DNA from: a virus
Taxonomy: Duplodnaviria; Heunggongvirae; Uroviricota; Caudoviricetes
Length of the DNA stretch: 39,156 nt
Reading direction: 5' to 3' (one strand)
IMG/VR virus record: IMGVR_UViG_2695420487_000015
In this document: positions 1-28,030 of the stretch, in pieces
Layout of the letters: each line of letters begins with the position of its first letter
Position numbering within the stretch: the first letter of the stretch is position 1
Notes under the pieces: generated by a model
Told to the model about the DNA's origin: nothing
Database searches by the model: none
Seen by the model: only the letters and a program-made list of their open reading frames with translations
Made by a program: the position numbers and the translations under genes

Positions 1-1038
1 CTAATAGCCAGGGATACCACCTTCTATATCTTTACTGATCTTCGCTCGTATATCAGCAGAGGGATAATCCAGGTCATTTTTACCACTACCCCCAATTCCC
101 ATAAAGTTAAAGGTATAATCAGGAATGATATCGATACCAAATTTTTTAGCATCTTTAACCAATGCAATAAAATCCTGCAAATCTCCCATTGGATTATGGA
201 TGGTACAAAGATCTTCGGGTTGATAAGCATGAAACCAGTAACCCTTTTCTTCTTCGGGAGTTTCTGGTCCGTCGGCGCGGAAAGTTGTCACTGGAGGGAT
301 TTGTATATACCCATAATGGCAACGTGCAAATTCAGACATATTTTCTCTGATCTGCTGGTAGGTGGCATTAAAAGCATGAAGAATCGCTTCGCCAGGTTTT
401 TTGGGGGTGATGATTTCACATTGTGATTTCTGAACAGCAGTAAGAGATTTACGCTCAAGTGTTTGCCGTAGATGTTCTAGATTGATTAATATTTTAAATG
501 TTTCTTGCTGTCCGGAAGGTGACGTCACGTTAATATTATATACATCGGCTGCCAGCTCATAGTCAGGAATGTTAATAGCATATGCAACATATTTATCTTT
601 TGGGGAAGGTTTGTCAGATATAATGTGGGTGAAATGTTCAGCACGACCATACTGATAAACACCGCTGTTATCACCTCTTTCAATCATTGTATCTCGTTGA
701 TAAACCTATGTTTTTCTTTCTCCTATCCTGTCTGGCGCTGTAATGCTACGCTGTGCTGCTTTATTCAACTCTCGGTAAGTTGTATCTGGAGAAAGGGAAA
801 TTTTATAATCGTTTTTTAACAGATCATTAATAACTTTTTCTGCGTGAAAAGTTGATATAATTTCTCTGTCTTTTAATCCTTGAGGGTAAACTCCACAAGA
901 ATTAATAATATTTGTTATACAGTTTAGATATTCTAATGTATTTAATTTGGAATTTAGATCCCCGTCAGTAATGTTCCATGATAACAATGTGGGGTTGTCG
1001 ATAGGTAAATTTCTGGGTCCTGGTTTTATAGAAAACAT
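1..1038 (-). pseudogene. GH13 alpha-amylase-family gene (ygaQ-like) interrupted by a single in-frame TAG at 706-708; the downstream piece ends at a TAG at 1-3
   Basis: Track ORFs 706..1038 and 1..687 share one frame and are separated only by an amber codon plus 6 sense codons. The downstream piece has an alpha-amylase-like GYW..DLQDFIALVKDAKKFGIDIIPDYTFN motif. Position next to an ileY-type tRNA resembles E. coli ygaQ (recollection). Confidence 0.45.
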
Positions 1039-1597
1039 AATAAAGTTCCTCTAATGGTAGAGTAATATGATGTATACGGAAACATAAAAATGTTTAATTG
1101 TTGTGAAAGTAATTGCAAACAGATGTCCTACTTTTATCCAATATTTATATGGAAAAGGATAATGCTTAAATCTGTTTTATTAATTATCGATGTGGTCTGG
1201 AGAGGCAACTGTCAAAAATCGCTCATACGAAACTAATGATTAGCAGAATAAGATCTATGAAAGAATATATTGCTATACGAAGTTTATTTTTATGGAGTGA
1301 AAAGTAACAGATATCATAATGATGCGAAAACTCTTCAGCTAATGTAATAAAGTTATATTATTAGATACAAAATCATTACAAAGTATCATTGAATCGATGA
1401 TAACTATAGATAGTGCTAATTATTAACATTTGCTTGTTGACTGCGAGTATCGACTTTGCGAATGGAGGCGGTGTCGGGTTTTATGTCGCGTGTAATCACG
1501 ACCCAAGGTGAATGGGAACGCATAAAAATCTGTTATTTACATCATATGATCATCATGTTTATTGCGTGGTTTATAAGTATTGTTATTGCACACTCAA

Positions 1598-1673
1598 GGC
1601 CCTTTAGCTCAGTGGTTAGAGCAGGCGACTCATAATCGCTTGGTCGCTGGTTCAAGTCCAGCAGGGGCCACCA
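1598..1673 (+). tRNA. ileY: tRNA with CAU anticodon, tRNA-Ile2 (lysidine) type, 76 nt with encoded CCA
   Basis: Cloverleaf read by hand: acceptor GGCCCTT/AGGGGCC, D-arm GCTC/GAGC, anticodon loop CTCATAA, T-loop TTCAAGT, 3' ACCA. Near-identical to the E. coli ileX/ileY sequence as I recall it. Confidence 0.85.
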
Positions 1674-1676
1674 AAT
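1628..1676. repeat. attL core: 49-bp direct repeat covering the 3' 46 nt of the tRNA plus 3 nt
   Basis: 48/49 identical to 33529..33577; the single mismatch is at 1664 (G here, A in the attR copy). Confidence 0.85.
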
Positions 1677-1700
1677 TTTAGCTTTATAATCATATAATTA

Positions 1701-1725
1701 AGCCACTCTAGCGAGTGGCTTTTTT
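1701..1725 (+). terminator. Intrinsic terminator downstream of the tRNA
   Basis: Hairpin AGCCACTC-tagc-GAGTGGCT followed by TTTTTT. Confidence 0.6.
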
Positions 1726-1791
1726 GTTATCTTGTTTTCAAGTGGCGATGAAATGGCGGTGGATTTTTTACCACCACTTTCATGAGCACAT

Positions 1792-1818
1792 AAAAAAACC
1801 CGCGCGCGGCGGGTCTTT
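1792..1818 (-). terminator. Intrinsic terminator downstream of ogr
   Basis: GC-rich hairpin CCCGCCGCGCGCGGG followed on the minus strand by a 7-nt T-run. Confidence 0.6.
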
Positions 1819-1830
1819 AGAGAAAATTTA

Positions 1831-2049
1831 TCAGAGCCACAATGGCCGCTGACCACTCACCGACGGGTGAGGTGGCGCCGGAATTATTGTTCCCGGTGTA
1901 ACGATAAAACGTTCTACAGACTCCATCGTTACGAATGTGCAACTGCAATTAATATTCGTACATTGATGGTAACGCTCTTTAGTATTCTCGCTAAGATAGC
2001 GACTGGTACGAGCATGCGCTGCATGCTGGCATTTTGGACAATGGAACAT
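1831..2049 (-). CDS. ogr: Late gene transcriptional activator, Ogr/Delta zinc-finger family
   Basis: 72 aa, MFHCPKCQHAAHARTSRY...CTNINCSCTF, Cys4 pattern and strong similarity to P2 Ogr as recalled. Confidence 0.9.
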   Translation of the reverse strand: MFHCPKCQHAAHARTSRYLSENTKERYHQCTNINCSCTFVTMESVERFIVTPGTIIPAPPHPSVSGQRPLWL

Positions 2050-2088
2050 GCCACCCCCACATATTCACAAAAAGTGAATTAATAATAC

Positions 2089-3282
2089 TCAGTTATTCAC
2101 CATTTGAGAACCACTTTCTTCCGACTCATATTCTATGCCAGAAAGCATAACCTCGAGCTCTACAGCCGTCGTGAAGCCATTCCCGCCTAGATTATGGGTC
2201 ACCTTACTGATTATCCACGACTGGTCGTCTATGACGCTTTTGAAGCCCGAGACCCTGACCGGCATTTCGGGATAAATATCTTCACGGCCGGTCGCCAGCA
2301 TGATCGAGAACTCCGCAACGCCACGCTGCAATTTATCCCACTTAGCCTGAGCCGCGCGCATCGCTTGCGCCTTTGTCGCGTAAATGGTCGTCAGTGCGAA
2401 AACATTGTCAGCCTCACCGGCCATATATTCACCCTCGCGGGCTTCCTGTTCTTTCTGCTTTTTGGCCGTGGTTTTACTGCTCACCGGTTTTGCTTTCGGG
2501 TGCTGTAGCGCCCGGAGGTGTTGCTCTTTGGGCTTACGCTTCAGCTTCACCGCTTGCTTTTGTTTCGCCGGTTTCGGGTCTTTAGTATGCAGCCACTTAG
2601 CGGTTACGCCGGTGTAAGCGCCCCGGTCGGCGATGGCAAACTGATGCCGGTCACCGTCACTGCGCTGGATGGTAATCTGAGGGATAGCTTTTCCGCTGGC
2701 CGTCGTACCACTTCCCGCTTTAAGCATCAGCAATTTACCCGCTTTGACCGATACCGCGCCGCCGTTGCGTTCCGCGAGGCGAGTCAGGAAAACAGCGTCG
2801 GATTCCTGCGACTGGTCGATATGCGGAATTTTTATCCCGGCAAGAGAGTCCGCGACGCTGGCCGTTAATTTATTACGGGCGGCTATCGCGCTGACAATAG
2901 CGCCGAGTGTGGTGTCGTGCCATGATTCCTCGCGGCGTGAATTGAGCGTTCCGCGAAAATCAGCGCTACGGGCGCGAATGGTCACCGTATCTGGCGCCCC
3001 CCGGTGCTCCACCTCATCGACGGTAAATCGCCCCTTACCAACGAGCGCGAAACCTTTCCAGCCGAGGTACAGCGACAACACCGCGCCCCTAATCGGCAGC
3101 GCGACAAGTCCGTCAGAATCATCGAGTTCAATGTCGAGCTGGTCAGCTTCAAAGCCCCGGTTATCCGTCATCGAGAGATTAATCAGCCGGTCGCTGATAT
3201 TGCCGGTGATATCTTTGCTTTCCAGTGTCAGCATAAAATCGGGCGTCAGTGTGGCCCCCGCGCCAGTGATAATATCCAGCAT
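2089..3282 (-). CDS. D: Tail protein D
   Basis: 397 aa; size and position after U/T match P2 gpD. Confidence 0.8.
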   Translation of the reverse strand: MLDIITGAGATLTPDFMLTLESKDITGNISDRLINLSMTDNRGFEADQLDIELDDSDGLVALPIRGAVLSLYLGWKGFALVGKGRFTVDEVEHRGAPDTVTIRARSADFRGTLNSRREESWHDTTLGAIVSAIAARNKLTASVADSLAGIKIPHIDQSQESDAVFLTRLAERNGGAVSVKAGKLLMLKAGSGTTASGKAIPQITIQRSDGDRHQFAIADRGAYTGVTAKWLHTKDPKPAKQKQAVKLKRKPKEQHLRALQHPKAKPVSSKTTAKKQKEQEAREGEYMAGEADNVFALTTIYATKAQAMRAAQAKWDKLQRGVAEFSIMLATGREDIYPEMPVRVSGFKSVIDDQSWIISKVTHNLGGNGFTTAVELEVMLSGIEYESEESGSQMVNN

Positions 3283-3284
3283 GA

Positions 3285-3749
3285 TTAAGCCCCCACCTTA
3301 GACAGCAGATCGCCCGCTTTACCGACCAGACTCTCGGCCTGTTTTCCGATATCGCCATAGACCGCCGCGAGCGATTCATCGACACGGGTCAGTGACAGAG
3401 TAAAGCTGATTTTTCGTGGCGACCCGTCCTCAAAAAATACCGTGCCGGTCTCCGAGACATTGCTGACAATAAACATCCCGTAAATCCAGCCCGAGCCAGA
3501 AATAAGCGGCCATGCTCGCCCCTGCTCGGCCATCGCATAAAGCGTCAGCATCGAAAACTTGCCGCCGGTCAGCTCAGGATACAGGTCACCGCTCAGGGTG
3601 ATTTTGTCCTCCCCTTCACCGAGATACTGAAAAGCATCACGTTTCCCGATGCGGGAGTTTGACGCCCAGCTATAATCCGCGCTGCGCTGCATGCTCTGAT
3701 AGGGCAACGTCTGACGCATAAAAACAAACATACCTAGTGCCAGCATCAT
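3285..3749 (-). CDS. U: Tail protein U
   Basis: 154 aa; position between T and D as in P2. Confidence 0.75.
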   Translation of the reverse strand: MMLALGMFVFMRQTLPYQSMQRSADYSWASNSRIGKRDAFQYLGEGEDKITLSGDLYPELTGGKFSMLTLYAMAEQGRAWPLISGSGWIYGMFIVSNVSETGTVFFEDGSPRKISFTLSLTRVDESLAAVYGDIGKQAESLVGKAGDLLSKVGA

Positions 3750-3760
3750 AATCGGTCTCC

Positions 3761-6190
3761 TTAGTCATGCATCATGCTTGCGCGGGCTTTGGCGCGTTTC
3801 TCACGCTCATATTTTTCTAAGGCATCCTGTAAATCATCACCTAACCGACCGCCTGGTATACCGTTGCCCGGCACGTTGATTTGATAGGTTGGCCGACTCT
3901 GGTCGATGTAGGTTTTACCGGCGGGTGCCGTGACCGGCTGATAGCTGTTGTAAGAGCTGATAGCCGGGCTATAGCCGTTCTGCGTCGCCGCACTGGCTTT
4001 CGCCGCGGTCTGGTCAAGTGAGCTGGACTCTTTGTTGATAATCCCGAGTTTTTCGAGCACCCAATCAATCCCGCTTCGCAGCTTGTTAAAGGCGTTAAGC
4101 GGCATCAGCAGCGCATCGGCCAGCGCCTGACCGAACATAACGCCAACATCACGACAACTGTTAAGCGTGTCCTGAGTCGCTTTTACCGGCGCTATCAGGT
4201 CTTTAAACCACTGCCATACACCGCGAAGTTTCTCGCCGAGGCCGTCAAAGGCGGGTACCAGCGGCGCGAACATTTCCCCGACCGGCGCAAAGGCGCTCAT
4301 CAGCCCCTCGATAACACCACCGAAAAAGGCGCTGACCGGCTCCCAGTATTTGCGAATAAGCAGCGCGCCACCGACAACCGCCGCCGCAACGGCCACGACC
4401 GGCCATGTAATCGCACCGATAGCGGCGATAACCCCGCCACTGATTGTCGTAAAGACAGCACCAAGTGCGCCAGCAGCAGCGATGATGGCGTTAATACCGA
4501 TAATAACCGGCCACGCAACAAGGCCGATTGCCCCTATAACCCCCACAACACCGATAGCCGCCGCTGAAATAACCCCAAGCGTCGTCGCCAGTGATTTATT
4601 TTTTTGTATCCAGCCATCAAGTTTTAAAACATACCCGGTCGCCGTTTGTACCAGCTTACGCAAGGATGACTCTTGCTGGTCAAACAGGTCTGTTCCGACC
4701 GCCTCATAAGCTGACTGGAACTCTTTAAAGTCGCCGCCGAGGTTGTCCTGCATGACCTTGACGAGCTCAGCCGTTTTACCGTCAGATGCTTTAAGTGTGG
4801 CGGTAAGCTGGTCCAGTTTACCGCTTGAGGCTGCAGTCATTAATACAGCAGCAGCTGAGCTTGCCTCTTCACCGAATATGGTTTTCATGTATTCAGCGCG
4901 CTGACCGGTACCGAGATTATTTTTCTCAAAGCTCCGCTGCATTTCTTTCAGGATGTTAAATATTGGGCGCGTGTTCCCCTTACCATCAGCCGTTTTTACG
5001 CCGAGCTCTTTAATAGCGTCATACGCTTTTCCCGTAGGAGCCTGTAGGCGACTTAACACAGCGCGGCTCCCCGTACCCGCCATCGAGCCTGTAATTTTGG
5101 CGTCATGCAGTGCGCCGACCATTGCGGCTGTTTCTTCGATACTGACCCCGGCATTTTTCGCCACCGGTGCGGCATAGGTCAGCGCATCACTCAGGCCGTC
5201 AAAGTCGGCGGCGGTTTTGTTCATCGTCATCGACAGAACATCACCGATATGGGCGACCTTATCGTTTGAGAGCTGGAATGCTGAGCGCATCCCCATCAAT
5301 AACCCGGCGTTCTCTTCCATCGTTCGACGGTTTGCGAGCGCCATATCAAGCGTCACTGGCGTAGCCGCCTGAATAGCAGCGGTATCACCACCGGCTTTTG
5401 CAATAATAATCTGAGCACCGGCAGCATCATCAGCCGACGCGGCTGTGTTATCACCGAGTTGACGCGCCTGTTTGCGAAGAGCCACCATATCAGCTGAATC
5501 TTTTTCAACGCCGAGAACAGCCTGAAGCTCAGAGTTTTTCTGAGCAAAATCATAACCGGGTTTCATTAGTGCAACACCGGCGAGAGTAGCTGTTGTTGCC
5601 ATACCTACCCCGGCAGCGCCCATCGAGGCGGCATTCCCTGCCAGAGCCTTCCCTGCCTGATAGCGTTTTTGTACTGCACTCAGTTTCGCCTGTTGCGCGC
5701 TGACGCGCGCCAGTGCTTCACGCTGGCGGTTAAGCTGTGCGGTCGTTTCGCTGATATTATTTTTCAGGCGATTTTCATCATTCGTCAGGTTGCGGGTATT
5801 AATCCCCGCTTTACCGAGCTCCGCCTGTTGCCGCTTAACAGACTGCGTGAGGCTGTTATATTTCGTCTGCAACCCATCAGCCGCGCGTTTCGCTGACTCC
5901 AGCACTCTGGCCTGTGCCGCTGTTGGCCGTTCCGTGTTTTTAAACTGCACCGCCAGCGCTTCAGCTTCCTGTTTTGCTTTTTCCAGCGACTGGCCGGTTA
6001 CCGCCAGTTGCGCACTGGTTTTACGAAAACCGTCTATTTTCGATGCCTGACCATTCAAATCACGCAGGGATTGCTGAGTCATGCGGATATCACCAGACAG
6101 CGATTTACTCGCCGTCTGGATCGCTTTAAAGGGTCGGGTCGCCTGGTCGACAGCTTTCAGCAGCACTTCGAGTTTGAGGTTATTACTCAT
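3761..6190 (-). CDS. T: Tail tape measure protein
   Basis: About 809 aa with a coiled N-terminus and Gly/Ala-rich hydrophobic centre. Start placed at the ATG at 6190 (MSNNLKLEV); the track's longer form begins at a TTG at 6235. Confidence 0.85.
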   Translation of the reverse strand: MSNNLKLEVLLKAVDQATRPFKAIQTASKSLSGDIRMTQQSLRDLNGQASKIDGFRKTSAQLAVTGQSLEKAKQEAEALAVQFKNTERPTAAQARVLESAKRAADGLQTKYNSLTQSVKRQQAELGKAGINTRNLTNDENRLKNNISETTAQLNRQREALARVSAQQAKLSAVQKRYQAGKALAGNAASMGAAGVGMATTATLAGVALMKPGYDFAQKNSELQAVLGVEKDSADMVALRKQARQLGDNTAASADDAAGAQIIIAKAGGDTAAIQAATPVTLDMALANRRTMEENAGLLMGMRSAFQLSNDKVAHIGDVLSMTMNKTAADFDGLSDALTYAAPVAKNAGVSIEETAAMVGALHDAKITGSMAGTGSRAVLSRLQAPTGKAYDAIKELGVKTADGKGNTRPIFNILKEMQRSFEKNNLGTGQRAEYMKTIFGEEASSAAAVLMTAASSGKLDQLTATLKASDGKTAELVKVMQDNLGGDFKEFQSAYEAVGTDLFDQQESSLRKLVQTATGYVLKLDGWIQKNKSLATTLGVISAAAIGVVGVIGAIGLVAWPVIIGINAIIAAAGALGAVFTTISGGVIAAIGAITWPVVAVAAAVVGGALLIRKYWEPVSAFFGGVIEGLMSAFAPVGEMFAPLVPAFDGLGEKLRGVWQWFKDLIAPVKATQDTLNSCRDVGVMFGQALADALLMPLNAFNKLRSGIDWVLEKLGIINKESSSLDQTAAKASAATQNGYSPAISSYNSYQPVTAPAGKTYIDQSRPTYQINVPGNGIPGGRLGDDLQDALEKYEREKRAKARASMMHD

Positions 6191-12698: not shown

Positions 12699-13412
12699 TT
12701 GGATAACAAGGAATATCAGAGGCACTTTGGAATAATAACTGATGAATTACAAAAGCCTTCCGATAAACATTTGAGAGCATTTACGCAGGTTGCTGACATT
12801 AGAAAGTTTGAAATTGAGATGTATTGGAAAAGAGCTACGTATTTCTGGACCATTATTGCTATTACTTTTACTGGTTATTTTGCTTTAGCCTCCGCAAATA
12901 GCTTTCCGTTCAAAAATGCATTTTCTCTTTTGCTTTCCAGTATGGGATCCGTTTTTACTCTTTCATGGTTTTTGGTAAACAGAGGTAGCAAATACTGGCA
13001 GGAAAACTGGGAAAATCACTTAGACCTGATGGAAAACGGCATAACTGGGCCGCTCTATAAAACTGTACTCTCACGACCGTCAGTCGAAGCCAAAAAAAAC
13101 GCACCTCAACTTGCGAGTACTGATAAAGATTTTATCGACAAACATATCACCGGCCCCAAAAAAATATCAGCATCCAAAATTAACCAATTAGTTGCATTTT
13201 ACTTGCTTGGCATATGGTTAATATTAGTAATGACAACAATTACTAACATCTTAAAACTATCATTCTGGAGTGAATCCACGATAGAAGTAGTGTTGAGCGT
13301 GGGAGTTTTAATTTGGTCAGCAATAGCCACTAGTTTAATGTTTTGTAAGTCAGCCACCTATACAGGAATACAGACTTCAGAGGCAAGAAAACGCTCTTCG
13401 AATTTGTTATAA
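12699..13412 (+). CDS. Cargo gene: predicted four-helix membrane protein of unknown function
   Basis: AT-rich ORF with four hydrophobic segments. Track start is a TTG at 12699 preceded by AAGAGGA; the first ATG is at 12819. Lies between tail genes V and S. Confidence 0.6.
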   Translation: MDNKEYQRHFGIITDELQKPSDKHLRAFTQVADIRKFEIEMYWKRATYFWTIIAITFTGYFALASANSFPFKNAFSLLLSSMGSVFTLSWFLVNRGSKYWQENWENHLDLMENGITGPLYKTVLSRPSVEAKKNAPQLASTDKDFIDKHITGPKKISASKINQLVAFYLLGIWLILVMTTITNILKLSFWSESTIEVVLSVGVLIWSAIATSLMFCKSATYTGIQTSEARKRSSNLL

Positions 13413-13680
13413 CGTTGGTGATACACTAATAAATTCATTTAAAGCCCTCAGTTTTGGGGGCATGTAATCTCTACTTTCTCACGGAAAGAGAGTCCAGGAT
13501 GTACACCAGCGCTTGACGCGGAAAGCTAGTCACTGGTGGCAATACTGCGGGTGCGACATAGACTACGCAGGAAGCGCACAATATCCGGAAAGTAGGTTGT
13601 GTTTTCGTGTGGGAAAGGATGCCGCCTTAGAAGATCGGCGGCAATAGAGGTATGCAGTTCTATCTCTGGTAAAATTTTGT

Positions 13681-14757
13681 TTATTTTCGTTTGCCATAAG
13701 ACTGGGTTAGAATCGGAGTAATATCCTTAGTAAAGATATCTAGTCTTTCTTTTTCGGCTGAGAAAACATACTGTCTGGCTTGAATTACATTTTGCCTACT
13801 AATTAAGTTTGACACCTTTTCTGGTTTGCTTAGTGCAACTTTGGCACCCTTGAATATCAACGCTAAGCCCGGTGATATTGTAAAAATACATCCATTATCA
13901 AATGAAAAATCATTTTTTAAGAAAATAAAAGGAAAATCACTTGAAACAATGGCATATCCCTTAGGTGCTGAGTACAAATATACCCTACAACTACTCTCAT
14001 TGGTGATTGAGGAAAAAGGTAACGCCATAAATCTATGCATCTTTCTAAGTAAGTAAAACATTTCCCTCCGCTGTCCGCTGTCCGCATTAACTAGATACGT
14101 TCCTCCCTCCTTTAGTATAGATAACAAAGACCTCCATTCAGAACGTGGGATTATGCTCGCACCAGAAGGAATGAGATCCTTATTAGTATTCAGTACTTTC
14201 TTGATGGTGGTGTTTATATTTTTTAATTTTGGCATGGAGCCTTTATCAAAAAAATCATCCATACCTTTGTTTCTATAACATAAAAAACGGGCCATGAAAA
14301 TTGCCATGTTTTTTAAATCGTTGAAATCAATCTCATGCAAACCACTACATACTATCGAACGTGCGAATTTTTTTTCCGAAAGCTTGCCAAGCAACCAGTG
14401 TCTACGCACGAAATAATGACTACCTGAAGCATTTTTAAAATGCTCCTTTAATTTATAAAATTGCCACATTGCGTCTACAAAATCAGGGTAACAATCCTCT
14501 AGTATTTTAAAACTGTCCTCAATAAAGTTATCTCTATCCCCATCAATATAAAGAGTATGCCTTCGCTCTTGACCACAAATTTTTGTGGCATTAAGAAAAG
14601 TAATCCTTTCTTTTATTTGCTTTTTGGTGGCATCTGTTTTCACAAAACCATAAACAGTATCTTTCCCAGTCTTTGGGTCTTCAGATGTTATTTTAAAATG
14701 CCTGATATAAGTTGCAGGCAGATAATGCTGATAGTTTTGAAAAGTTCCCTTTGACAT
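13681..14757 (-). CDS. Cargo gene: DUF4238-like protein, candidate single-gene anti-phage defense protein
   Basis: AT-rich, 358 aa from the ATG at 14757, preceded by GGAGG and only 13 nt after the S stop. N-terminal HYLPATYIRHF resembles the DUF4238 signature as I recall it. Confidence 0.6.
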   Translation of the reverse strand: MSKGTFQNYQHYLPATYIRHFKITSEDPKTGKDTVYGFVKTDATKKQIKERITFLNATKICGQERRHTLYIDGDRDNFIEDSFKILEDCYPDFVDAMWQFYKLKEHFKNASGSHYFVRRHWLLGKLSEKKFARSIVCSGLHEIDFNDLKNMAIFMARFLCYRNKGMDDFFDKGSMPKLKNINTTIKKVLNTNKDLIPSGASIIPRSEWRSLLSILKEGGTYLVNADSGQRREMFYLLRKMHRFMALPFSSITNESSCRVYLYSAPKGYAIVSSDFPFIFLKNDFSFDNGCIFTISPGLALIFKGAKVALSKPEKVSNLISRQNVIQARQYVFSAEKERLDIFTKDITPILTQSYGKRK

Positions 14758-14770
14758 AGTAACCTCCAAT

Positions 14771-20678: not shown

Positions 20679-22448
20679 ATGACTACTACCAATGACACAT
20701 CACTACTCAGCGACCCGCGACGACAGGCCGCGCTTTTGTTCTGGCAGGGCTATTCCGTGCCACAAATCGCGGAGCAGTTACAGGTCAAGCGCCCCACGGT
20801 GCAGAGCTGGAAACAGCGCGATAAATGGGAAGAGACCGCCCCGTTAAACCGGGTTGAATTCACGCTTGAGGCACGGCTGATTCAGCTCTACGCAAAGCCC
20901 GACCTGACGGCTCACGACTTTAAGGTCGCGGATTTTCTGGCGCGCCAGATGGAGCGCCTCGCGCGGGTTAACCGCTACGGCCAGACCGGCAACGAAGCGG
21001 ATTTAAACCCGAACGTGGCCAACCGCAACAAAGGGGAAAAGAAGAAGCCGAAAAAGAATTTTTTCAGCGAAGAGGCTATCGAGAAACTCGAAGAGATTTT
21101 CCTCGAGCAGTCTTTCGACTATCAGCTCGAGTGGTGGCGCGCGGGGCTGGCGCACCGCATCAGGCACATCCTGAAATCGCGACAGATTGGCGCGACGTTC
21201 TATTTTGCGCGTGAGGCACTGTTACAGGCGCTGAAGACAGGCCACAACCAGATATTTTTATCAGCCAGTAAGACACAGGCCTACGTGTTCCGAAAATACA
21301 TCATCGCCTTTGCCCGACAGGCTGGCGTTGAACTCACCGGCGACCCGATTGTGCTCGGCAACAATGGCGCGGAGCTGATGTTTCTCGGTACCAATGCCAA
21401 CACCGCACAGAGCCACAACGGCGACCTGTATGTCGACGAAATTTTCTGGATCCCCAACTTCCAGAAACTGAAGCGTGTCGCCGGGGGTATGTCGTCACAG
21501 GAGCATTTGCGCACGACCTATTTTTCGACCCCCTCATCGCTGGCGCACGGAGCTTACCCGTTCTGGTCGGGTGAGCAGTTCAACAAGGGGCGCTCAGACA
21601 AGAGCGAGCGAGTCGATATCGATATCAGTCACGCCGCACTCGCGAGGGGCGTCGCCTGTCCTGACGGCCAGTGGCGACAGATTGTCACCATCGAGGACGC
21701 ACTCGCCAAAGGGTGCACGCTGTTCAACATCGATACGTTAAAGCGCGAGAACAGTGTCGATGAGTTCCGCAACCTGTTTATGTGCGAGTTCGTCGACGAT
21801 AAAGCGTCGGTATTCCCGTTCGAAGAGCTGCAACGCTGCATGGTCGACAGCCTCGAGAAATGGGAGGACTACGCGCCATTTGCCGACAGGCCATTCACTC
21901 ATCGTCCGGTGTGGATTGGCTACGACCCGTCATTACGTGGCGACAGCGCCGGATGCGTCGTTATCGCGCCGCCAGTCGTTGCCGGTGGCAAATTCCGCAT
22001 CCTCGAGCGCCACCAGTGGAAAGGGATGGACTTCGCCCAACAGGCCGAATCCATTCGCGAGCTCACGCAGAAATACACTGTGGAATATATCGGTATCGAT
22101 GCGACCGGGCTCGGTCAGGGCGTCTTCCAGCTCGTGCGCTCGTTCTACCCGGCCGCGCGTGAAATCCGCTACACGCCAGAAATGAAAACCTCAATGGTGC
22201 TCAAAGCCAAAGACACCATTCGCCGCGGTTGCCTCGAGTACGACGTCAGCGCAACCGATATCACGCAGTCGTTTATGTCTATCCGCAAAACCATGACCAG
22301 CAGCGGGCGCAGCTCGACCTATGAGGCCAGCCGCACCGAGGAAGCCAGTCACGCCGATCTCGCATGGGCAACCATGCACGTATTAATCAATGAGCCGCTG
22401 ACCGCCGCGACCGGTGAGCAGTCATCCAGCATCATGGAGTGGAACTAA
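20679..22448 (+). CDS. P: Terminase large (ATPase) subunit P
   Basis: 589 aa, GAGG RBS 4 nt upstream; size and sequence match P2 gpP. Confidence 0.9.
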   Translation: MTTTNDTSLLSDPRRQAALLFWQGYSVPQIAEQLQVKRPTVQSWKQRDKWEETAPLNRVEFTLEARLIQLYAKPDLTAHDFKVADFLARQMERLARVNRYGQTGNEADLNPNVANRNKGEKKKPKKNFFSEEAIEKLEEIFLEQSFDYQLEWWRAGLAHRIRHILKSRQIGATFYFAREALLQALKTGHNQIFLSASKTQAYVFRKYIIAFARQAGVELTGDPIVLGNNGAELMFLGTNANTAQSHNGDLYVDEIFWIPNFQKLKRVAGGMSSQEHLRTTYFSTPSSLAHGAYPFWSGEQFNKGRSDKSERVDIDISHAALARGVACPDGQWRQIVTIEDALAKGCTLFNIDTLKRENSVDEFRNLFMCEFVDDKASVFPFEELQRCMVDSLEKWEDYAPFADRPFTHRPVWIGYDPSLRGDSAGCVVIAPPVVAGGKFRILERHQWKGMDFAQQAESIRELTQKYTVEYIGIDATGLGQGVFQLVRSFYPAAREIRYTPEMKTSMVLKAKDTIRRGCLEYDVSATDITQSFMSIRKTMTSSGRSSTYEASRTEEASHADLAWATMHVLINEPLTAATGEQSSSIMEWN

Positions 22449-23485
22449 TGAGCAAGAAACGCAACAAGCGCCAGCAGCAGCCGCGCACTCAAAACCACAC
22501 CGCCGCACCGGCGCAGAGCATGGAAGCATTCACTTTTGGTGAGCCGACGCCGGTACTCGACCGCCGCGATATTCTCGACTACGTCGAGTGCATCGACAAC
22601 GGCCAGTGGTACGAGCCGCCGGTGAGCTTTTCCGGGCTGGCGAAGAGCATGCGCGCCGCCGTGCATCACAGCTCGCCGATTTACGTGAAGCGTAATATTC
22701 TGGTATCGACCTACATCCCGCACCCGCTGTTATCCCGTCAGGACTTCACCCGGTTTGCGCTCGACTATCTGGTGTTTGGTAATGCGTTTATCGAAGAGCG
22801 TCGCGGCCTGACCGGCAAGCCGTTAAAACTGGAAACTTCACCGGCGAAATATACCCGCCGTGGCATCGAGGATGACGTGTACTGGTATATTCAGTCCTAC
22901 ACGCAGCCGCACCAGTTCGCGCCCGGCTCCGTCTTCCACCTGCTCGAGCCCGATATTAATCAGGAGCTTTACGGGATGCCGGAATACCTGAGCGCGCTCA
23001 ATTCAGCCTGGCTGAATGAATCGGCGACACTGTTCCGTCGCAAGTATTACCAGAACGGCGCACATGCGGGTTACATCATGTACGTGACCGACGCGGCGCA
23101 AAGCAGCGCTGACGTCGAGGCGCTGCGAAAGGCGATGCGCGACTCAAAAGGGCTCGGCAATTTTAAGAACCTATTTTTCTACGCACCAAACGGTAAAGCC
23201 GACGGGATTAAAATTGTGCCGCTGAGCGAAGTTGCCACGAAGGATGATTTTTTTAATATCAAGAAAGTCAGCGCCGCTGACCTTCTCGACGCGCACCGCA
23301 TCCCATTCCAGCTTATGGGCGGTAAGCCCGAGAACGTCGGCTCAGTGGGTGACGTTGAGAAGGTGGCAAAGGTCTTTGTGCGTAACGAACTGACCCCGCT
23401 ACAGGCGCGGTTTATGGAGCTGAACGAGTGGGCGGGTGAAGAGATTATCCGCTTCGAAAAATATAGCCTCGGCGACGACGAGTAA
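22448..23485 (+). CDS. Q: Portal protein Q
   Basis: Start at ATG 22448 (MSKKRNKRQ), which overlaps the P stop as TAATG; 345 aa, close to P2 gpQ in size. Confidence 0.85.
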   Translation: MSKKRNKRQQQPRTQNHTAAPAQSMEAFTFGEPTPVLDRRDILDYVECIDNGQWYEPPVSFSGLAKSMRAAVHHSSPIYVKRNILVSTYIPHPLLSRQDFTRFALDYLVFGNAFIEERRGLTGKPLKLETSPAKYTRRGIEDDVYWYIQSYTQPHQFAPGSVFHLLEPDINQELYGMPEYLSALNSAWLNESATLFRRKYYQNGAHAGYIMYVTDAAQSSADVEALRKAMRDSKGLGNFKNLFFYAPNGKADGIKIVPLSEVATKDDFFNIKKVSAADLLDAHRIPFQLMGGKPENVGSVGDVEKVAKVFVRNELTPLQARFMELNEWAGEEIIRFEKYSLGDDE

Positions 23486-23661: not shown

Positions 23662-23680
23662 ATGCTATCCCCGCCACGCC
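23662..23680. other. Candidate cos site (19-nt cohesive end)
   Basis: Reverse complement reads GGCGTGGCGGGGATAGCAT, resembling P2/186 cohesive ends as recalled; located just downstream of Q as in P2. Confidence 0.45.
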
Positions 23681-23827
23681 TGCCCGCTTTATGGGTCGGT
23701 TTTAATGCAGTTGCATGACCACTCTGGATCTGCGCCAGCTCTGGCATTACACGTCCAGAACTAGCAAGCCTTGCGAATGCAAAACCATGCTTCTTATACA
23801 TGCACAGCTAAAAACAGAAAATAACAT

Positions 23828-23855
23828 AAAAAAACCGGCATCAAGATGCCGGTTT
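23828..23855 (-). terminator. Intrinsic terminator downstream of the acyltransferase gene
   Basis: Hairpin CCGGCATC..GATGCCGG followed on the minus strand by a 7-nt T-run. Confidence 0.6.
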
Positions 23856-23952
23856 AGTTCATATCATATCATGCTTGCACTTGTGGCCTATAAATGTGCT
23901 GAAAATACTATTAAGTAAAACATCCATGATCATCGTTCTGCTGAAGCCCTGT

Positions 23953-25170
23953 TTAATTAGCTTTATCAAGGCGTCCCCCCACCACCATCCGCTTGTAATT
24001 TATTGCGAACAACTTAATTTTTTCAGGGAACTTTGACGCCAAAATTATTGACTTTCTGTCTACATATGAATAAAAGGGCATTGATATCAAAATAGTTATC
24101 ATCGAAGTTAAGATAAATGTAACAAACGCACCAACGGACGGCGACGCAATGTTTTTGTAAACCCAAAAACCAACTATAGATATAACAAATGGATGAAGCA
24201 AGTATATTGAAAATGACAACTTCCCAATAAACAAGACTACATTTTTGCTCATCCCCCTTAAACATCTCCCATTCACAAAGACAGAAGCAATAATCAAAAA
24301 AGAACCAAGCGATATTGTAAACTCTGGCCATTGTATTAATATACCGCATTGAAACTGAAGGTAGAGGTAAAATTCAACCAGATCTTTATACGCAGTGCTC
24401 GCCGGTGCATACCCAACAAGATAAAGGCCAATAAACAACATAAGAAGCGATACAAACTTTCTTAACCGTCCATTATTTTCACTTATCTCGAAAGTTGATA
24501 AAAACACACCAGAAAGGAAAAGCCCATAATAAATTACATTAATACTACCAGACAAAAACATGCAAACAAATGAAATAAACGACAACCAGCGAAGAATGGT
24601 CTTGTTCTCACCAAACAGAGATATAAATCCGTATACCAATATAGAACCAAAAAACTCAATACTAATAGTCCACAGAACATAGTTATACTTTATATTACCA
24701 AAAAGCATAGCGCCAAATGAAGCATCCCATATGGCTGACACTATATTCCCATCAAAACTAAACGCAGTCATTAACGGCATTGATGCAGCGGGGCTATCCT
24801 TATCCGGAAAAAAGCCCAACAACATTATAAAATAGCAAATAATCACAGATGCTGCTACGGGAACCCCAAGCCTAATGTATCTCTTCAATGCTGATGCTTG
24901 TATATAACGTATTTCGTTATTATTTTTTTGGCAACTCAGTGACAAAACCAACCCGCTCAAAACAAAGAATAAGCTAACAGCAGATCCCCCCTTATAGAAA
25001 AAAGTAAAAGGGCTATTAAATAAATTTTCTTGCCACTTGCTATCAAACATACTGCCAGAATGCACCGAAGGTATAAACATTAAAAATGAATGCGATAAAA
25101 CGACAGCCATGGCTGCCACACCTCTTATCCCATCAAAGATTTTTACATTATTTCTCTCATTATCACTCAT
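23953..25170 (-). CDS. Cargo gene: acyltransferase family 3 membrane protein (O-antigen/LPS acetylase type)
   Basis: AT-rich, 405 aa, about 10 hydrophobic segments, N-terminal DGIRGVAAMAVVLSHS motif typical of acyltransferase-3; sits in the cos-to-A interval, the P2 tin/old slot. Confidence 0.75.
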   Translation of the reverse strand: MSDNERNNVKIFDGIRGVAAMAVVLSHSFLMFIPSVHSGSMFDSKWQENLFNSPFTFFYKGGSAVSLFFVLSGLVLSLSCQKNNNEIRYIQASALKRYIRLGVPVAASVIICYFIMLLGFFPDKDSPAASMPLMTAFSFDGNIVSAIWDASFGAMLFGNIKYNYVLWTISIEFFGSILVYGFISLFGENKTILRWLSFISFVCMFLSGSINVIYYGLFLSGVFLSTFEISENNGRLRKFVSLLMLFIGLYLVGYAPASTAYKDLVEFYLYLQFQCGILIQWPEFTISLGSFLIIASVFVNGRCLRGMSKNVVLFIGKLSFSIYLLHPFVISIVGFWVYKNIASPSVGAFVTFILTSMITILISMPFYSYVDRKSIILASKFPEKIKLFAINYKRMVVGGRLDKAN

Positions 25171-25268
25171 GCAAAAAACCTTTTATAATAAAAAATGTCA
25201 TTTCGATTAACGTATTGTATTGGTTATTATTGTGTTATAACTGACAATCAACCTTAAAAAAACGCGGC

Positions 25269-25297
25269 ATTATAGCACCTTAAGCCTGTTGTATGAA
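25269..25297 (-). promoter_or_regulatory. Candidate sigma-70 promoter for the acyltransferase gene
   Basis: Minus-strand TTCATA, 17-bp spacer, TATAAT. Confidence 0.3.
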
Positions 25298-25463
25298 TAT
25301 CATTATTGTTTTGACAGGAAGAGTTCCGTTTACGCCCCACCTAACCTTCGGAGCACTGAGTAGTGCTCCCAATGAGGTTGGAATAAGGGGAGATTCAAAA
25401 AATAGCTGACCATTCTATGCAGGCAACCCAACTACCAGCATACAACTTGTTTTTTCTCGCAAC

Positions 25464-25646
25464 TTACTCAGCCTTTGTTAATCGTTCTTCAGCATGGGTT
25501 GCAGAGAAAACCAGTGAAAAGGAGTTATTTTTCATCAAGTTGCCTCTCACTATTTCTGCAATCAAATTCAATGCGATTTCACGGTCTCTTTCCTTACAAG
25601 TCCCTTCAGCCGTTAGACGCGCAATCATTTCGACTCGCTCAATCAT
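25464..25646 (-). CDS. Small hypothetical protein (60 aa) downstream of a LexA box; candidate SOS-controlled antirepressor-like gene
   Basis: First ATG at 25646 with a weak RBS; charged, helix-like composition. The track's longer ORF starts at a GTG and would contain the LexA box. Confidence 0.3.
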   Translation of the reverse strand: MIERVEMIARLTAEGTCKERDREIALNLIAEIVRGNLMKNNSFSLVFSATHAEERLTKAE

Positions 25647-25691
25647 AACGTGCTCACTTAATTCTCTATCCACACAACCTCCACAACGAGA

Positions 25692-25711
25692 TACTGTATA
25701 AACATACAGTA
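25692..25711 (-). promoter_or_regulatory. LexA box (SOS operator)
   Basis: TACTGTATAAACATACAGTA: exact CTGT-N8-ACAG palindrome with AT-rich spacer, close to the E. coli LexA consensus; 46 nt upstream of the small ORF. Confidence 0.55.
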
Positions 25712-25789
25712 ACACATGTTGATAAAAAATGTGAAGGAAAAAAACCAATAAATACACTGTATGTGCATGATATGGATGAATATTAACGG

Positions 25790-28030
25790 TTATATTTTCA
25801 TTGCCAGTTCAGTTAAAACCGCAACGCGATTGAGGATTTCTGTAGCTTTGGTCTGATGTTCCTTAGCTCTATCTTGATGCGATGGCGCTGCGGAAAATAT
25901 TTCGCCTTTGGCCGTTCCGCGTAACCATTTACCATCAAAACAACTTTTACCACCGACCATCAGGTGCAGGGCTTCGCCCCGGCTGATAACGATGCCAGTT
26001 GTCAGATGTATCTCGTCGATAATTTTCGCTAAAACTGCGTTTTGCTCATTCGTTCCGTGAATGAATTTTCGCCGTATTTGTGGTTTTTGCTTCCTGAGTC
26101 GGTTTGTCAGCTCTCGTCTTTCACGTCGACTCAAGGGTTTTGATAAATCGAGTTCCGGTGGATCGCTTTCGCTTCCCGTATAGTTATTGACAGAACTCCG
26201 AGAGGGCGCAGGAGCGCCCTTAACGTCAACGGCCAAATCAACGGCACGCTTCGGCACAATTTTCCACTGCGTTAACCGGGTTAAAATCGGGGTGCCAGCG
26301 CCGACAGCAGAGTCGTAGACGCCACGAATGCAGACGGTTTCCTCACCATACTGGTTAAACTCGGGGCGCGGCTCATACAGCGTGCGCACCTGTAAATCAT
26401 CGCGACAGACAAACGGACCACCCTGCGCACTAACGTAACCAGCCCAGTCACCGGCGTCAGCGGCATCATGGACGGCAGCAAACTCAACGCTCAGACCGTG
26501 CGCGGTCTCGGTATCAGCGAGACGACGTAATTCACGGTAGACCGTCACCGGCGCACCGCCGATAAACTGGAACTGACGGATGTGCCAGCGCGCCGCCCAT
26601 GCTGATACGGCGGGGGCTGTCTCTTTCAGCAGCTCACCGCTTTCGTCATCGGTTTCACCATCAAGAGCATATCCGTCGATGTTTTTGGAAATGTATTTAG
26701 CGACATAGCCGGTAGCGCTGCCCTTTTCTGGGTCAATGGCTTCGGCATGAAAGCGCGCTTTTTTGGCTTTATCGCTTCTCAGTTCATGGCGGTCTTCCTC
26801 CCACGCATAATCACGGATGATGAGACGCACACTCTCGACGTCTTCCGGCAACATGAACATAAGCATGTGCCAGTGCGGCGTTCCGTCGTGATGAGGCTCA
26901 GCAACACGGATGCCGAAAATGCGGATTTCTTCCCGGTGTAGCTTGGCGCGTATGCGTGCCCAAAGACCGGTTAGATAGCTCTGCGTGTCCGAAGGGCTGG
27001 CACCGTTCCATTTGCTATTACGGTAGCCCGCTTTAGTCGTGGCGTGATATTTAGACGGTGCGGTTAAAGTGTAAAACTCACCGACATAACCGAGCTCATT
27101 GCAGATATTTTCAAACCCACGGATGCGGGTCATCAGCTCGCAGCGACGTATTGCAGGGTTAGCAACCGAACCATCGTATTTTTCAATCAGACTGATGCGG
27201 TTGCCGTCTTCGTCTTCGAGCTCCAGTCCTTTAAGAAATTCGCGCGTGCGGCGTTTCTGCTCGCGCCAGTCAGTCACGCAGTTTTTACTCGCGTAGGCGT
27301 GCTTTTTCTTACTGACGTTGCCAACAGCAATTTGTAGATGTTCGCGCCATGCAGACGCAATGCGACGTAAACGACCACGCCACCAAACCTCATTAAACAT
27401 GCGCATTACTGCCGGTGCGATTTCATCCTCACCAAAATATTTTTTAGTCACACGCTCCCATTTCGGCGGTGTAACGTTGAATTGCAGGGAAATAAAACCG
27501 GCGCGCATGTACCAGGCGTACAGCGTTTTGAGTTCGCTAAATCCGGTGTCATCAATATCAGCCAGTTCAGCACGAATGAAATTAGCGATATCAGCGGCAA
27601 GCAGGTCAATATCAGCGCGCGACATATCCGGGAGGCGGTTAAATCTGGCGACCATATTGACCATGCGTGACGCCAGATATTGCATAAGCTGGGTATCAAA
27701 ATGACCATCGAAAACAGAGGCTGATACATTGCTGTTGATGCCCGAGCACTCATATTTTTTTGCGACGAGTTCAAGACGTGGCAATGCCTTTTTGCAGAAG
27801 CTGATTAAAAAGGCATTGGCTCGTTGACTGCCCTGATTTTGCTCCAGTACCGCAGCGGTACGATAAACATCAAAGCGCACACACTCTGGCTGGAGAGAAA
27901 GCACCGTTCTCGCATGCAGCAAAGCCGCGAACATACGGTCGCGGCGATGCTGTTGGTCATAGGTAAGATATGGGCTGGCTAATGCCGACCGTGGGGCATT
28001 CCACGGAAACGCGTAAACTACACCCGTCAT
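25790..28030 (-). CDS. A: Replication initiation protein A (rolling-circle nickase)
   Basis: 746 aa; size and position match P2 gpA. Confidence 0.85.
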   Translation of the reverse strand: MTGVVYAFPWNAPRSALASPYLTYDQQHRRDRMFAALLHARTVLSLQPECVRFDVYRTAAVLEQNQGSQRANAFLISFCKKALPRLELVAKKYECSGINSNVSASVFDGHFDTQLMQYLASRMVNMVARFNRLPDMSRADIDLLAADIANFIRAELADIDDTGFSELKTLYAWYMRAGFISLQFNVTPPKWERVTKKYFGEDEIAPAVMRMFNEVWWRGRLRRIASAWREHLQIAVGNVSKKKHAYASKNCVTDWREQKRRTREFLKGLELEDEDGNRISLIEKYDGSVANPAIRRCELMTRIRGFENICNELGYVGEFYTLTAPSKYHATTKAGYRNSKWNGASPSDTQSYLTGLWARIRAKLHREEIRIFGIRVAEPHHDGTPHWHMLMFMLPEDVESVRLIIRDYAWEEDRHELRSDKAKKARFHAEAIDPEKGSATGYVAKYISKNIDGYALDGETDDESGELLKETAPAVSAWAARWHIRQFQFIGGAPVTVYRELRRLADTETAHGLSVEFAAVHDAADAGDWAGYVSAQGGPFVCRDDLQVRTLYEPRPEFNQYGEETVCIRGVYDSAVGAGTPILTRLTQWKIVPKRAVDLAVDVKGAPAPSRSSVNNYTGSESDPPELDLSKPLSRRERRELTNRLRKQKPQIRRKFIHGTNEQNAVLAKIIDEIHLTTGIVISRGEALHLMVGGKSCFDGKWLRGTAKGEIFSAAPSHQDRAKEHQTKATEILNRVAVLTELAMKI

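Follow-up and report, generated by a model that had tools for sequence, protein, structure and literature searches.

We propose that a 186-like prophage of Escherichia coli carries a gene for a membrane acyltransferase that modifies a glycan on the surface of its host. The gene (23953..25170, minus strand, ATG start) encodes a 405-residue protein of the acyltransferase-3 (AT3) family and lies in a 39,156-nucleotide stretch of viral DNA, IMG/VR record IMGVR_UViG_2695420487_000015, which we call the window. We think that this gene is probably a moron that is expressed from the lysogen and that encodes an active surface-glycan acyltransferase. AT3 O-acetyltransferases from temperate phages are a classic mechanism of lysogenic conversion (PMC9558356). 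The phenomenon is thus familiar in kind: the identical gene is annotated in RefSeq as "acyltransferase family protein," and it already appears in a published supplementary table (discussed below).

By its sequence, membership of this protein in the AT3 family is nearly certain. The Pfam profile PF01757 matched residues 12-367, covering positions 4-325 of the 326 positions in the profile (E = 3.9e-25; 89.1 bits against a cut-off of 31), and this was the only Pfam match. The protein also matched phrog_3333 ("O-acetyltransferase") at 6e-28. The gene has a G+C content (GC) of 0.36, and it is also 0.36 at third codon positions (GC3), as compared to 0.56 for the portal gene (22439-23485) on one side and 0.52 for the replication gene A (25790-28030), which lies upstream. 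Because the open reading frame (ORF) spans 405 codons in DNA with 36% GC and gives matches with such E-values, it did not arise by chance. A preliminary description of this DNA, made from the letters alone, had reported an AT-rich ORF of this length between the cohesive-end site (cos) and gene A and had assigned it to the AT3 family. Both statements are correct, and the boundaries of the ORF were exact; the search against PF01757 that it suggested as a check gave the match above and thus did not refute it.

The catalytic motifs are all present. In an alignment of 60 homologues, H27, F68, F69, S72, G73, R97, and R100 are invariant and R16 is conserved in at least 90%. These residues belong to the R/K-X10-H motif in transmembrane helix (TMH) 1 (R16-GVAAMAVVLS-H27), the FFXISG-type motif in TMH2 (FFVLSG, residues 68-73, which aligns to FFSISG of Oac from phage Sf6), and the RXXR motif after TMH2 (RYIR, residues 97-100). 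The corresponding residues are essential in OafA, Oac, and OafB (PMC7448272). R/K-X10-H is R14/H25 in OafA, and the RXXR positions are R69/R72 in OafA and R73/R75 in Oac (PMC7448272), so R14, H25, R69, and R72 of OafA are equivalent to R16, H27, R97, and R100 of our protein. G221 is invariant in the subfamily as well and is a candidate for the conserved glycine of TMH6 (G202 in OafA); our alignment to Oac stops near residue 228.

A profile comparison (hhalign) to Sf6 Oac gave a probability of 97.3% (E = 2.2e-11) across the N-terminal 195 columns, with 25% identity and with the motifs in register. Because this relationship is remote, we consider our protein to belong to a separate subfamily from Oac. 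Like Oac and its relatives OacB/C/D, it consists of the AT3 domain only, with no SGNH domain, and R-X10-H, FFxxSG, and RxxR are all aligned. Both are AT-rich morons of temperate phages with a promoter of their own (predicted, in our case). However, Oac has 333 amino acids instead of 405, and our protein has a longer loop between TMH1 and TMH2 and a K/R-rich C-terminal helix. The gene for Oac is from a P22-like podovirus, in which the tailspike and integrase genes flank it, while our gene lies in the cos-proximal hotspot of a myovirus of the P2 family.

The predicted structure agrees with this assignment. The AlphaFold2 model has a mean predicted local distance difference test (pLDDT) of 94.1 and a predicted template modelling score (pTM) of 0.91. 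From this model, we are confident that the fold is polytopic, all-helical, and of the transmembrane acyltransferase (TmAT) type. HGSNAT and GWT1, which have solved structures with the TmAT superfold, aligned to the model over 256-270 residues with 11-13% sequence identity; unlike our protein, they are eukaryotic, and they have different acceptors. The model has no globular domain outside the membrane. A sequence search against the chains of the Protein Data Bank (PDB) found no relative, and there was no AT3 protein with a solved structure in the copy that we searched. Among the viral structures in BFVD, there was one match, to a 637-residue protein, which was uninformative.

We considered whether the protein might have a function unrelated to carbohydrates, as a transporter or in the acylation of a small molecule or a lipid. 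The AT3 family does include enzymes that act on antibiotics and on other acceptors that are not glycans (PMC9558356), and many of the weaker structural matches were transporters of the major facilitator superfamily (MFS). But those matches had low Z or TM scores and covered just 110-150 residues or so, against 256-270 for HGSNAT and GWT1. Also, the protein has every catalytic motif of the carbohydrate O-acetyltransferases, and its relatives are found in polysaccharide loci or beside the receptor-binding genes of phages. We consider a non-carbohydrate function very improbable.

If the protein is indeed a glycan acyltransferase, then by analogy to Oac, OafA, and OafB, it would be an integral enzyme of the inner membrane whose polytopic domain forms a pore. 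The acyl group, most likely acetyl, would come from cytoplasmic acyl-CoA by way of the Arg-X10-His pair in TMH1 and the RxxR motif, and a surface polysaccharide would receive it on the periplasmic side of the membrane, while the polysaccharide is being assembled or once it has been exported. OafA and OafB, which are AT3-SGNH proteins of the GtrC family from Salmonella, have an 11th helix, a linker, and a periplasmic SGNH domain (PMC9558356), all of which are missing here. Because there is no SGNH domain, the AT3 domain would have to perform the final transfer itself or use a partner (PMC9558356).

The genomic contexts of the relatives point to surface polysaccharides. The 43% identical homologue is encoded directly after a P22-type tailspike at the end of a prophage, and another P2-like prophage encodes the 40% identical homologue near its cos site. 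When we compared the protein to phage records with tblastn, the sole match was in Pantoea phage PA-1 (39% identity), where the gene has the tailspike on one side and the integrase on the other; a DNA search of 50,697 phage records found matches to the flanks and none to the AT3 gene itself. Homologues with 34-37% identity are in the O-antigen clusters (rmlA/D/B-wbpM-wbpL) of several species of Pseudomonas and beside rmlADB in Stenotrophomonas (37% for the latter). IMG/VR contains 118 relatives. A search of genome contigs with the single AT3 protein as the query found nothing, and the same search with an alignment of 16 sequences found 24 loci, all with 41% identity or less. Our marker-based classification of neighbourhoods was coarse: 27 of 104 loci could be classified.

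Close relatives are few. The two closest homologues are much more similar. The first (71% identity; locus L003) occupies the corresponding slot in a different 186-like prophage, where it is downstream of a full-length tum gene of 146 codons with a different junction. The second (78% identity; locus L014, positions 1-5664) is in a decayed remnant of a 186-like prophage. The ratio of nonsynonymous to synonymous substitution rates (dN/dS) is 0.08 against the 71% homologue and 0.13 against the 78% homologue, which indicates strong purifying selection across this family of cassettes. Given that dN/dS is around 0.1 and that relatives are found near tailspikes or in O-antigen clusters, the best reading of these sequences is that the subfamily acylates surface polysaccharides that serve as receptors for phages. 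This subfamily of AT3-only proteins of around 400 amino acids, which is common to 186-like, P22-like, and PA-1-like temperate phages and to the O-antigen clusters of Pseudomonas, is an addition of this analysis; several lineages of temperate phages have picked it up.

Both of these close homologues (P0002 from L014 and P0003 from L003) were predicted to have 385 amino acids, which is a gene-calling artefact, as the calls start at an internal codon (Met21). The upstream DNA of both encodes the full N-terminus, including the catalytic arginine of R-X10-H. This artefact could mislead surveys of the motifs.

The AT3 gene sits inside what was once the SOS operon of a 186-like phage. Over 35 kb, a prophage in the genome of E. 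coli strain 10 (NZ_CP048330) matches the window with 99.994% identity, and the window's genes for CI, CII, Fil, a DinI/Tum-type protein, and replication protein A place the phage in the P2 family as 186-like. The AT3 gene has gene A on one side and the portal gene on the other, in a slot that adjoins cos and whose content varies among relatives. This slot is the gpA-gpQ cos-proximal region, which is a hotspot of diversity in P2-like phages and contains tin/old in P2 (Rousset et al. 2022, PMC9122126). The preliminary description had referred to the tin/old slot, and the hotspot is indeed the same one; the phage is 186-like, however, so the reference content is tum and orf97, and the gene is within a former SOS operon.

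The record for phage 186 shows, at this position, a promoter repressed by LexA (p95), tum, a partial terminator (t95a), orf97, and the terminator t95b. The flanks of the slot match phage 186 at about 84%, and homology by blastn covers 25839..25472 and 23814..23681. Because this homology stops at 25472 and at 23814, we conclude that a cargo segment of low GC (36%, about 1.6 kb; 23856..25471, minus strand) stands where phage 186 has the 3' half of tum, t95a, and orf97. What is left of tum (tum'; 25464..25673, minus strand) encodes about 57 N-terminal residues of Tum and a new tail of 11 residues, judging from the comparison of its translation with Tum of phage 186 and of L003 (146 amino acids each). 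The DinI-like C-terminal half is lost: tum' has no match to Pfam's DinI family (PF06183), and RefSeq describes it as a DinI-family pseudogene. The same truncation is found in all three of the prophage variants that we examined and in the remnant L014. The full-length Tum (146 amino acids with its DinI-like domain) followed by orf97 is not present in the slot of the window. The backbone position, the N-terminal part of tum, t95b, and the LexA box of p95 are shared with phage 186. This box (TACTGTATGTTTATACAGTA, 20 bp; 25692..25711, minus strand) was identified by a pattern match and is the same as the annotated site of phage 186 when they are placed side by side. Because tum is truncated, the prophage may no longer be SOS-inducible, despite its intact p95 and LexA box.

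The gene seems to have its own promoter. A consensus scan identified a putative sigma-70 promoter (25269..25297, minus strand) with a -35 box of TTCATA (25297-25292), a 17-nucleotide spacer, and an extended -10 box (TG-n-TATAAT), for 10 of 12 matches to the consensus plus the TG. The core of this promoter, TTCAT...AAGGTGCTAT[A/G]AT, is invariant in the cassettes of the window, L003, and L014, even though the flanks have drifted and the proteins of the three cassettes are just 71-78% identical. The borders of the cassette within the 186 SOS operon, the truncation of tum, and this conserved promoter are also new to this analysis.

Downstream of the gene, there is an intrinsic terminator (23822..23855, minus strand) with a 10-bp stem (23855-23832) and a T-run, which we identified with a scan and with a three-way alignment to t95b of phage 186 and to L003. 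Its alignment to t95b is weak, and we take it from this alignment to be a diverged homologue of t95b, so it is the terminator of the slot and not of the AT3 gene. The preliminary description, which had given the gene its own promoter and terminator, therefore appears to be right about the promoter and not about the terminator. Upstream of the gene, we did not find pairs of GATC sites (as in phase variation of gtr operons by Dam and OxyR) or an ops/JUMPStart element, and Rfam had nothing above threshold in the slot. There is a perfect 8-bp hairpin with no T-run (GGAGCACT-ACTC-AGTGCTCC; 25350-25370, minus strand) between tum' and the promoter of the AT3 gene. The 3' arm of this hairpin and the sequence that follows it recur upstream of the cassette in L014.

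In a lysogen, we expect that the AT3 gene would be transcribed from its own extended -10 promoter, independently of the lytic genes of the phage, up to the terminator of the slot. During the SOS response, the LexA-controlled p95 probably reads into the gene as well, because t95a was deleted along with the 3' half of tum. Such read-through is plausible because our scan found no terminator-like site between tum' and the AT3 gene. Acylation would then amount to a lysogenic conversion of the surface glycan that alters its recognition by antibodies and by glycan-dependent phages.

Alternatively, the AT3 gene might have replaced orf97 as part of a programme for induction: it would be driven by p95 after DNA damage, and it would prevent the progeny from adsorbing again to cell debris or exclude superinfecting 186-like phages. 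According to the record for phage 186, plasmid-expressed orf97 blocks infection by 186, and the AT3 gene has the position of orf97 downstream of p95 and tum, with the same LexA box and with t95a and any other terminator-like site gone. But the AT3 gene has a conserved promoter of its own; SOS induction itself is doubtful now that tum is truncated; the cassette of L003 follows a full-length tum with a different sequence at the junction; and the AT3 homologues of other phages are at positions where morons are expressed during lysogeny. We think it quite unlikely that induction is the main role of the gene.

To see how widespread the gene is, we can turn to complete genomes of E. coli. It is found in 37 of 5,426 of them, always on the chromosome and in a single copy, with 99.3-100% identity, and no diverged alleles were found in these genomes. 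The two alleles in E. coli differ by five nonsynonymous and three synonymous changes, including G276D. The three prophages that we examined are mosaics, with different early genes and different cargo in the slot between genes S and V, and yet they have the tum'-AT3 module and the integration site in common. Similarly, the remnant L014 has kept fragments of gpA, the tum'-AT3 module, the terminator and cos region, a fragment of the portal gene, and an attachment repeat; its module is 75% identical to the window at the DNA level, without interruption across the junction, and its AT3 gene is intact (an ORF of 407 codons). The retention of this module in otherwise mosaic prophages and in a decayed remnant favours our proposal that the enzyme is active. 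One of the three prophages (PRO_A-1496; L020 13816-15036) has an insertion of ISKox3, an element of the ISL3 family, between tum' and gene A. This insertion probably disables the prophage by cutting p95, tum', and the AT3 gene off from gene A.

Table S5A of Rousset et al. 2022 (PMC9122126) contains exactly the alleles of these carrier prophages, WP_087902597 and WP_071940769, under the entry "hypothetical + Acyl_transf_3." That study neither tested nor discussed the Acyl_transf_3 cargo (PMC9122126). The cargo that it validated in the P2-like hotspot is mostly intracellular defence against phages, while the cargo here is predicted to be an envelope-modifying enzyme. The papers that we consulted on sequence type (ST) 167 and on O101, which are relevant to the hosts of the prophage, do not mention the AT3 gene or a prophage acyltransferase.

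Several results weigh against our proposal. First, the number of promoter-like sites in the AT-rich region is unremarkable (7 found as compared to 7.2 expected from shuffled sequence). We take the promoter to be real nevertheless, because three diverged cassettes have kept its core unchanged. Second, PADLOC gave no match for the AT3 gene (or for the other cargo ORFs). Third, 3 of the 37 copies (L024, L025, and L026; from NZ_CM136175, NZ_CP183161, and NZ_CP027701) are frameshifted, each in a different homopolymer: G6 became G5 (position 180, codon 60), A7 became A8 (position 241, codon 81), or T6 became T7 (position 357, codon 119). These could be independent inactivations by slippage or errors in the assembly of long reads.

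The remaining objections come from the surface loci of the hosts. In the three carrier genomes that we examined (of the 37), the O8/O9 polymannan locus next to his has been destroyed by the insertion sequence IS1: the remnants between his and gnd (L016, L018, and L021) retain wbdA-C, wbdC alone, or a fragment of wbdC. For their capsules, the same genomes have group-1 loci of the Klebsiella type, which represent three K types, and some of these loci have been hit by IS1 as well. Despite these different K types, the copies of the AT3 gene share 99.3-100% identity, which makes an acceptor that is specific to a K type awkward. Two of the carriers, SCEC020023 and MRSN346595, are ST167 strains described as "O89b:H9" from clonal complex 10. 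Lineages of this complex have a relocated locus for an ABC-transporter-type O-antigen (O89m/Onovel32/O101-like) between nfsB and ybdK; ST167 strains reportedly retain O89b at this new position, with 30 group-1 K-locus (KL) types among them. In view of the relocated O89m/O89b locus, we rejected the idea that these hosts make no O-antigen at all. In strain 10, though, the relocated O89m locus (L023) has been cut down to galF, galE, one glycosyltransferase, and IS903B. Because this locus is truncated too, strain 10, which represents the host of the window, probably lacks a complete O-antigen locus and makes no O-antigen. Finally, nuclear magnetic resonance (NMR) of the Onovel32 O-polysaccharide revealed an O-methyl cap and no O-acetyl group was reported, in strains that may or may not have the prophage.

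So, the preliminary description's suggestion of lysogenic conversion stands as a general idea, in that this seems to be a moron for surface modification, but in view of the damaged O loci and the NMR data, the O-antigen is no more than a candidate acceptor, and it is a doubtful one in the window-type host. This mismatch between the O-antigen reading and the surface loci of the hosts is another addition of this analysis. In ST167, the acceptor could be the O-antigen; other candidates are the group-1 K antigen, which depends on Wzy, with its lipopolysaccharide-associated form (K_LPS), and a conserved glycan such as the enterobacterial common antigen (ECA). If the glycan is not the O-antigen, then in these hosts the group-1 K antigen or K_LPS would be more plausible.

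The degraded O-antigen loci of the window-type host could also mean that the gene is a relic that is hitch-hiking with the prophage: the glycan that it evolved to modify would have belonged to a previous host, and the gene would now be drifting in E. coli of clonal complex 10 with no acceptor. The frameshifts in three different homopolymer tracts and the changes between the two alleles (5 nonsynonymous and 3 synonymous, with G276D among them) fit with drift, and the 37 copies form one narrow cluster of alleles, with the three that we examined all at a single place in the chromosome, as one would see if inheritance is mostly vertical. Yet 34 of the 37 copies are intact, the frameshifts may be errors in homopolymers from long reads, and the catalytic residues are all preserved. 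Purifying selection across the family of cassettes and the retention of the module, both described above, also argue against this explanation, which we consider unlikely.

We give a little more credence to the possibility that the enzyme is active on a conserved glycan of the envelope, such as ECA (as for WecH), osmoregulated periplasmic glucans (OPG, as for OpgC), the core of lipopolysaccharide, or peptidoglycan, although we still doubt it. There are AT3-only enzymes that have ECA or periplasmic glucans as their acceptors (PMC9558356). A conserved acceptor would explain why a near-invariant allele is found in hosts with different K types and with damaged O-antigen loci. There was also a weak and partial match to NCBIfam's MdoC/OpgC family; at 26 bits against a cut-off of 338, and with just residues 291-362 aligned, we rejected the protein as an orthologue of OpgC. 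The relatives of our protein cluster with tailspikes and O-antigen genes and not with genes for ECA or OPG. Furthermore, E. coli already has wecH and opgC.

We also considered a more specific version of our proposal, in which the gene is under dual control: its own promoter would be constitutive and p95 would boost its expression, and the enzyme would acylate either the poly-N-acetylhexosamine (poly-HexNAc) O-antigen O89m/Onovel32 or the group-1 K antigen in ST167 and other members of clonal complex 10. With all of these details, it is unlikely to be correct as a whole. If it is, then DNA damage would change an epitope that is recognized by phages, by antibodies, and by candidate glycoconjugate vaccines against O101/Onovel32.

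More generally, if the surface-glycan acyltransferase is active, then it would add an acyl decoration to the surface polysaccharide of E. coli from clonal complex 10. ST167 is a carbapenem-resistant high-risk clone, and the O101/Onovel32 antigen and the Klebsiella-type capsules of the ST167 clade are being studied as virulence factors and as vaccine targets. An unrecognized modification from a prophage could alter recognition by antibodies and phages and could explain some serological heterogeneity. It would also imply that the cargo of the "defence hotspot" in the P2 family includes genes that modify the envelope, besides systems for intracellular immunity.

Other features of the window help to define the prophage. 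The cos site has a cohesive-end 19-mer, GGCGTGGCGGGGATAGCAT (23662..23680, minus strand; read from the sequence), which we take to be the 186-type cos sequence. It is 273 bp from the stop codon of the AT3 gene, and the linear end of the genome of phage 186 aligns as far as 23681. The counterpart of this 19-mer in L003 is GGCGTGGCGGGGAAAGCAT. The prophage of strain 10 is flanked by ypjC/ssrA on one side and by chromosomal genes on the other. Sequences at 33529-33577 and 1598-1881 are probably attachment repeats that derive from the 3' end of ssrA, so that the prophage would span roughly 1.6-33.6 kb. The same sequences adjoin each other in the remnant L014, and RefSeq has a 105-bp "tRNA-OTHER" feature at about 33470-33574.

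The window also has other AT-rich cargo. Directly after the integrase, at the end of the prophage, there is an ORF of 498 codons (31821-33317, minus strand; GC of 0.36-0.41), for which Pfam and PADLOC gave no match. RefSeq has a shorter version (1464 bp), which is kept as WP_052935640 in both strain 10 and SCEC020023. This gene is a further uncharacterised moron. A second cargo island (12699-14769; GC of 0.37-0.41) lies between the baseplate gene V and the tail genes S/R, in the slot of P2's orf30. This slot has other content in the prophage of SCEC020023 and is empty in PRO_A-1496. In the window, it encodes an 8xMP/RipA octameric membrane protein (12699-13412, plus strand; PF24838, 124 bits) and a DUF4238 protein (13681-14769, minus strand; PF14022, 27.7 bits against a cut-off of 27). 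One DUF4238 protein, on its own, was validated as a strong defence against phage T7 by Rousset et al. (PMC9122126).

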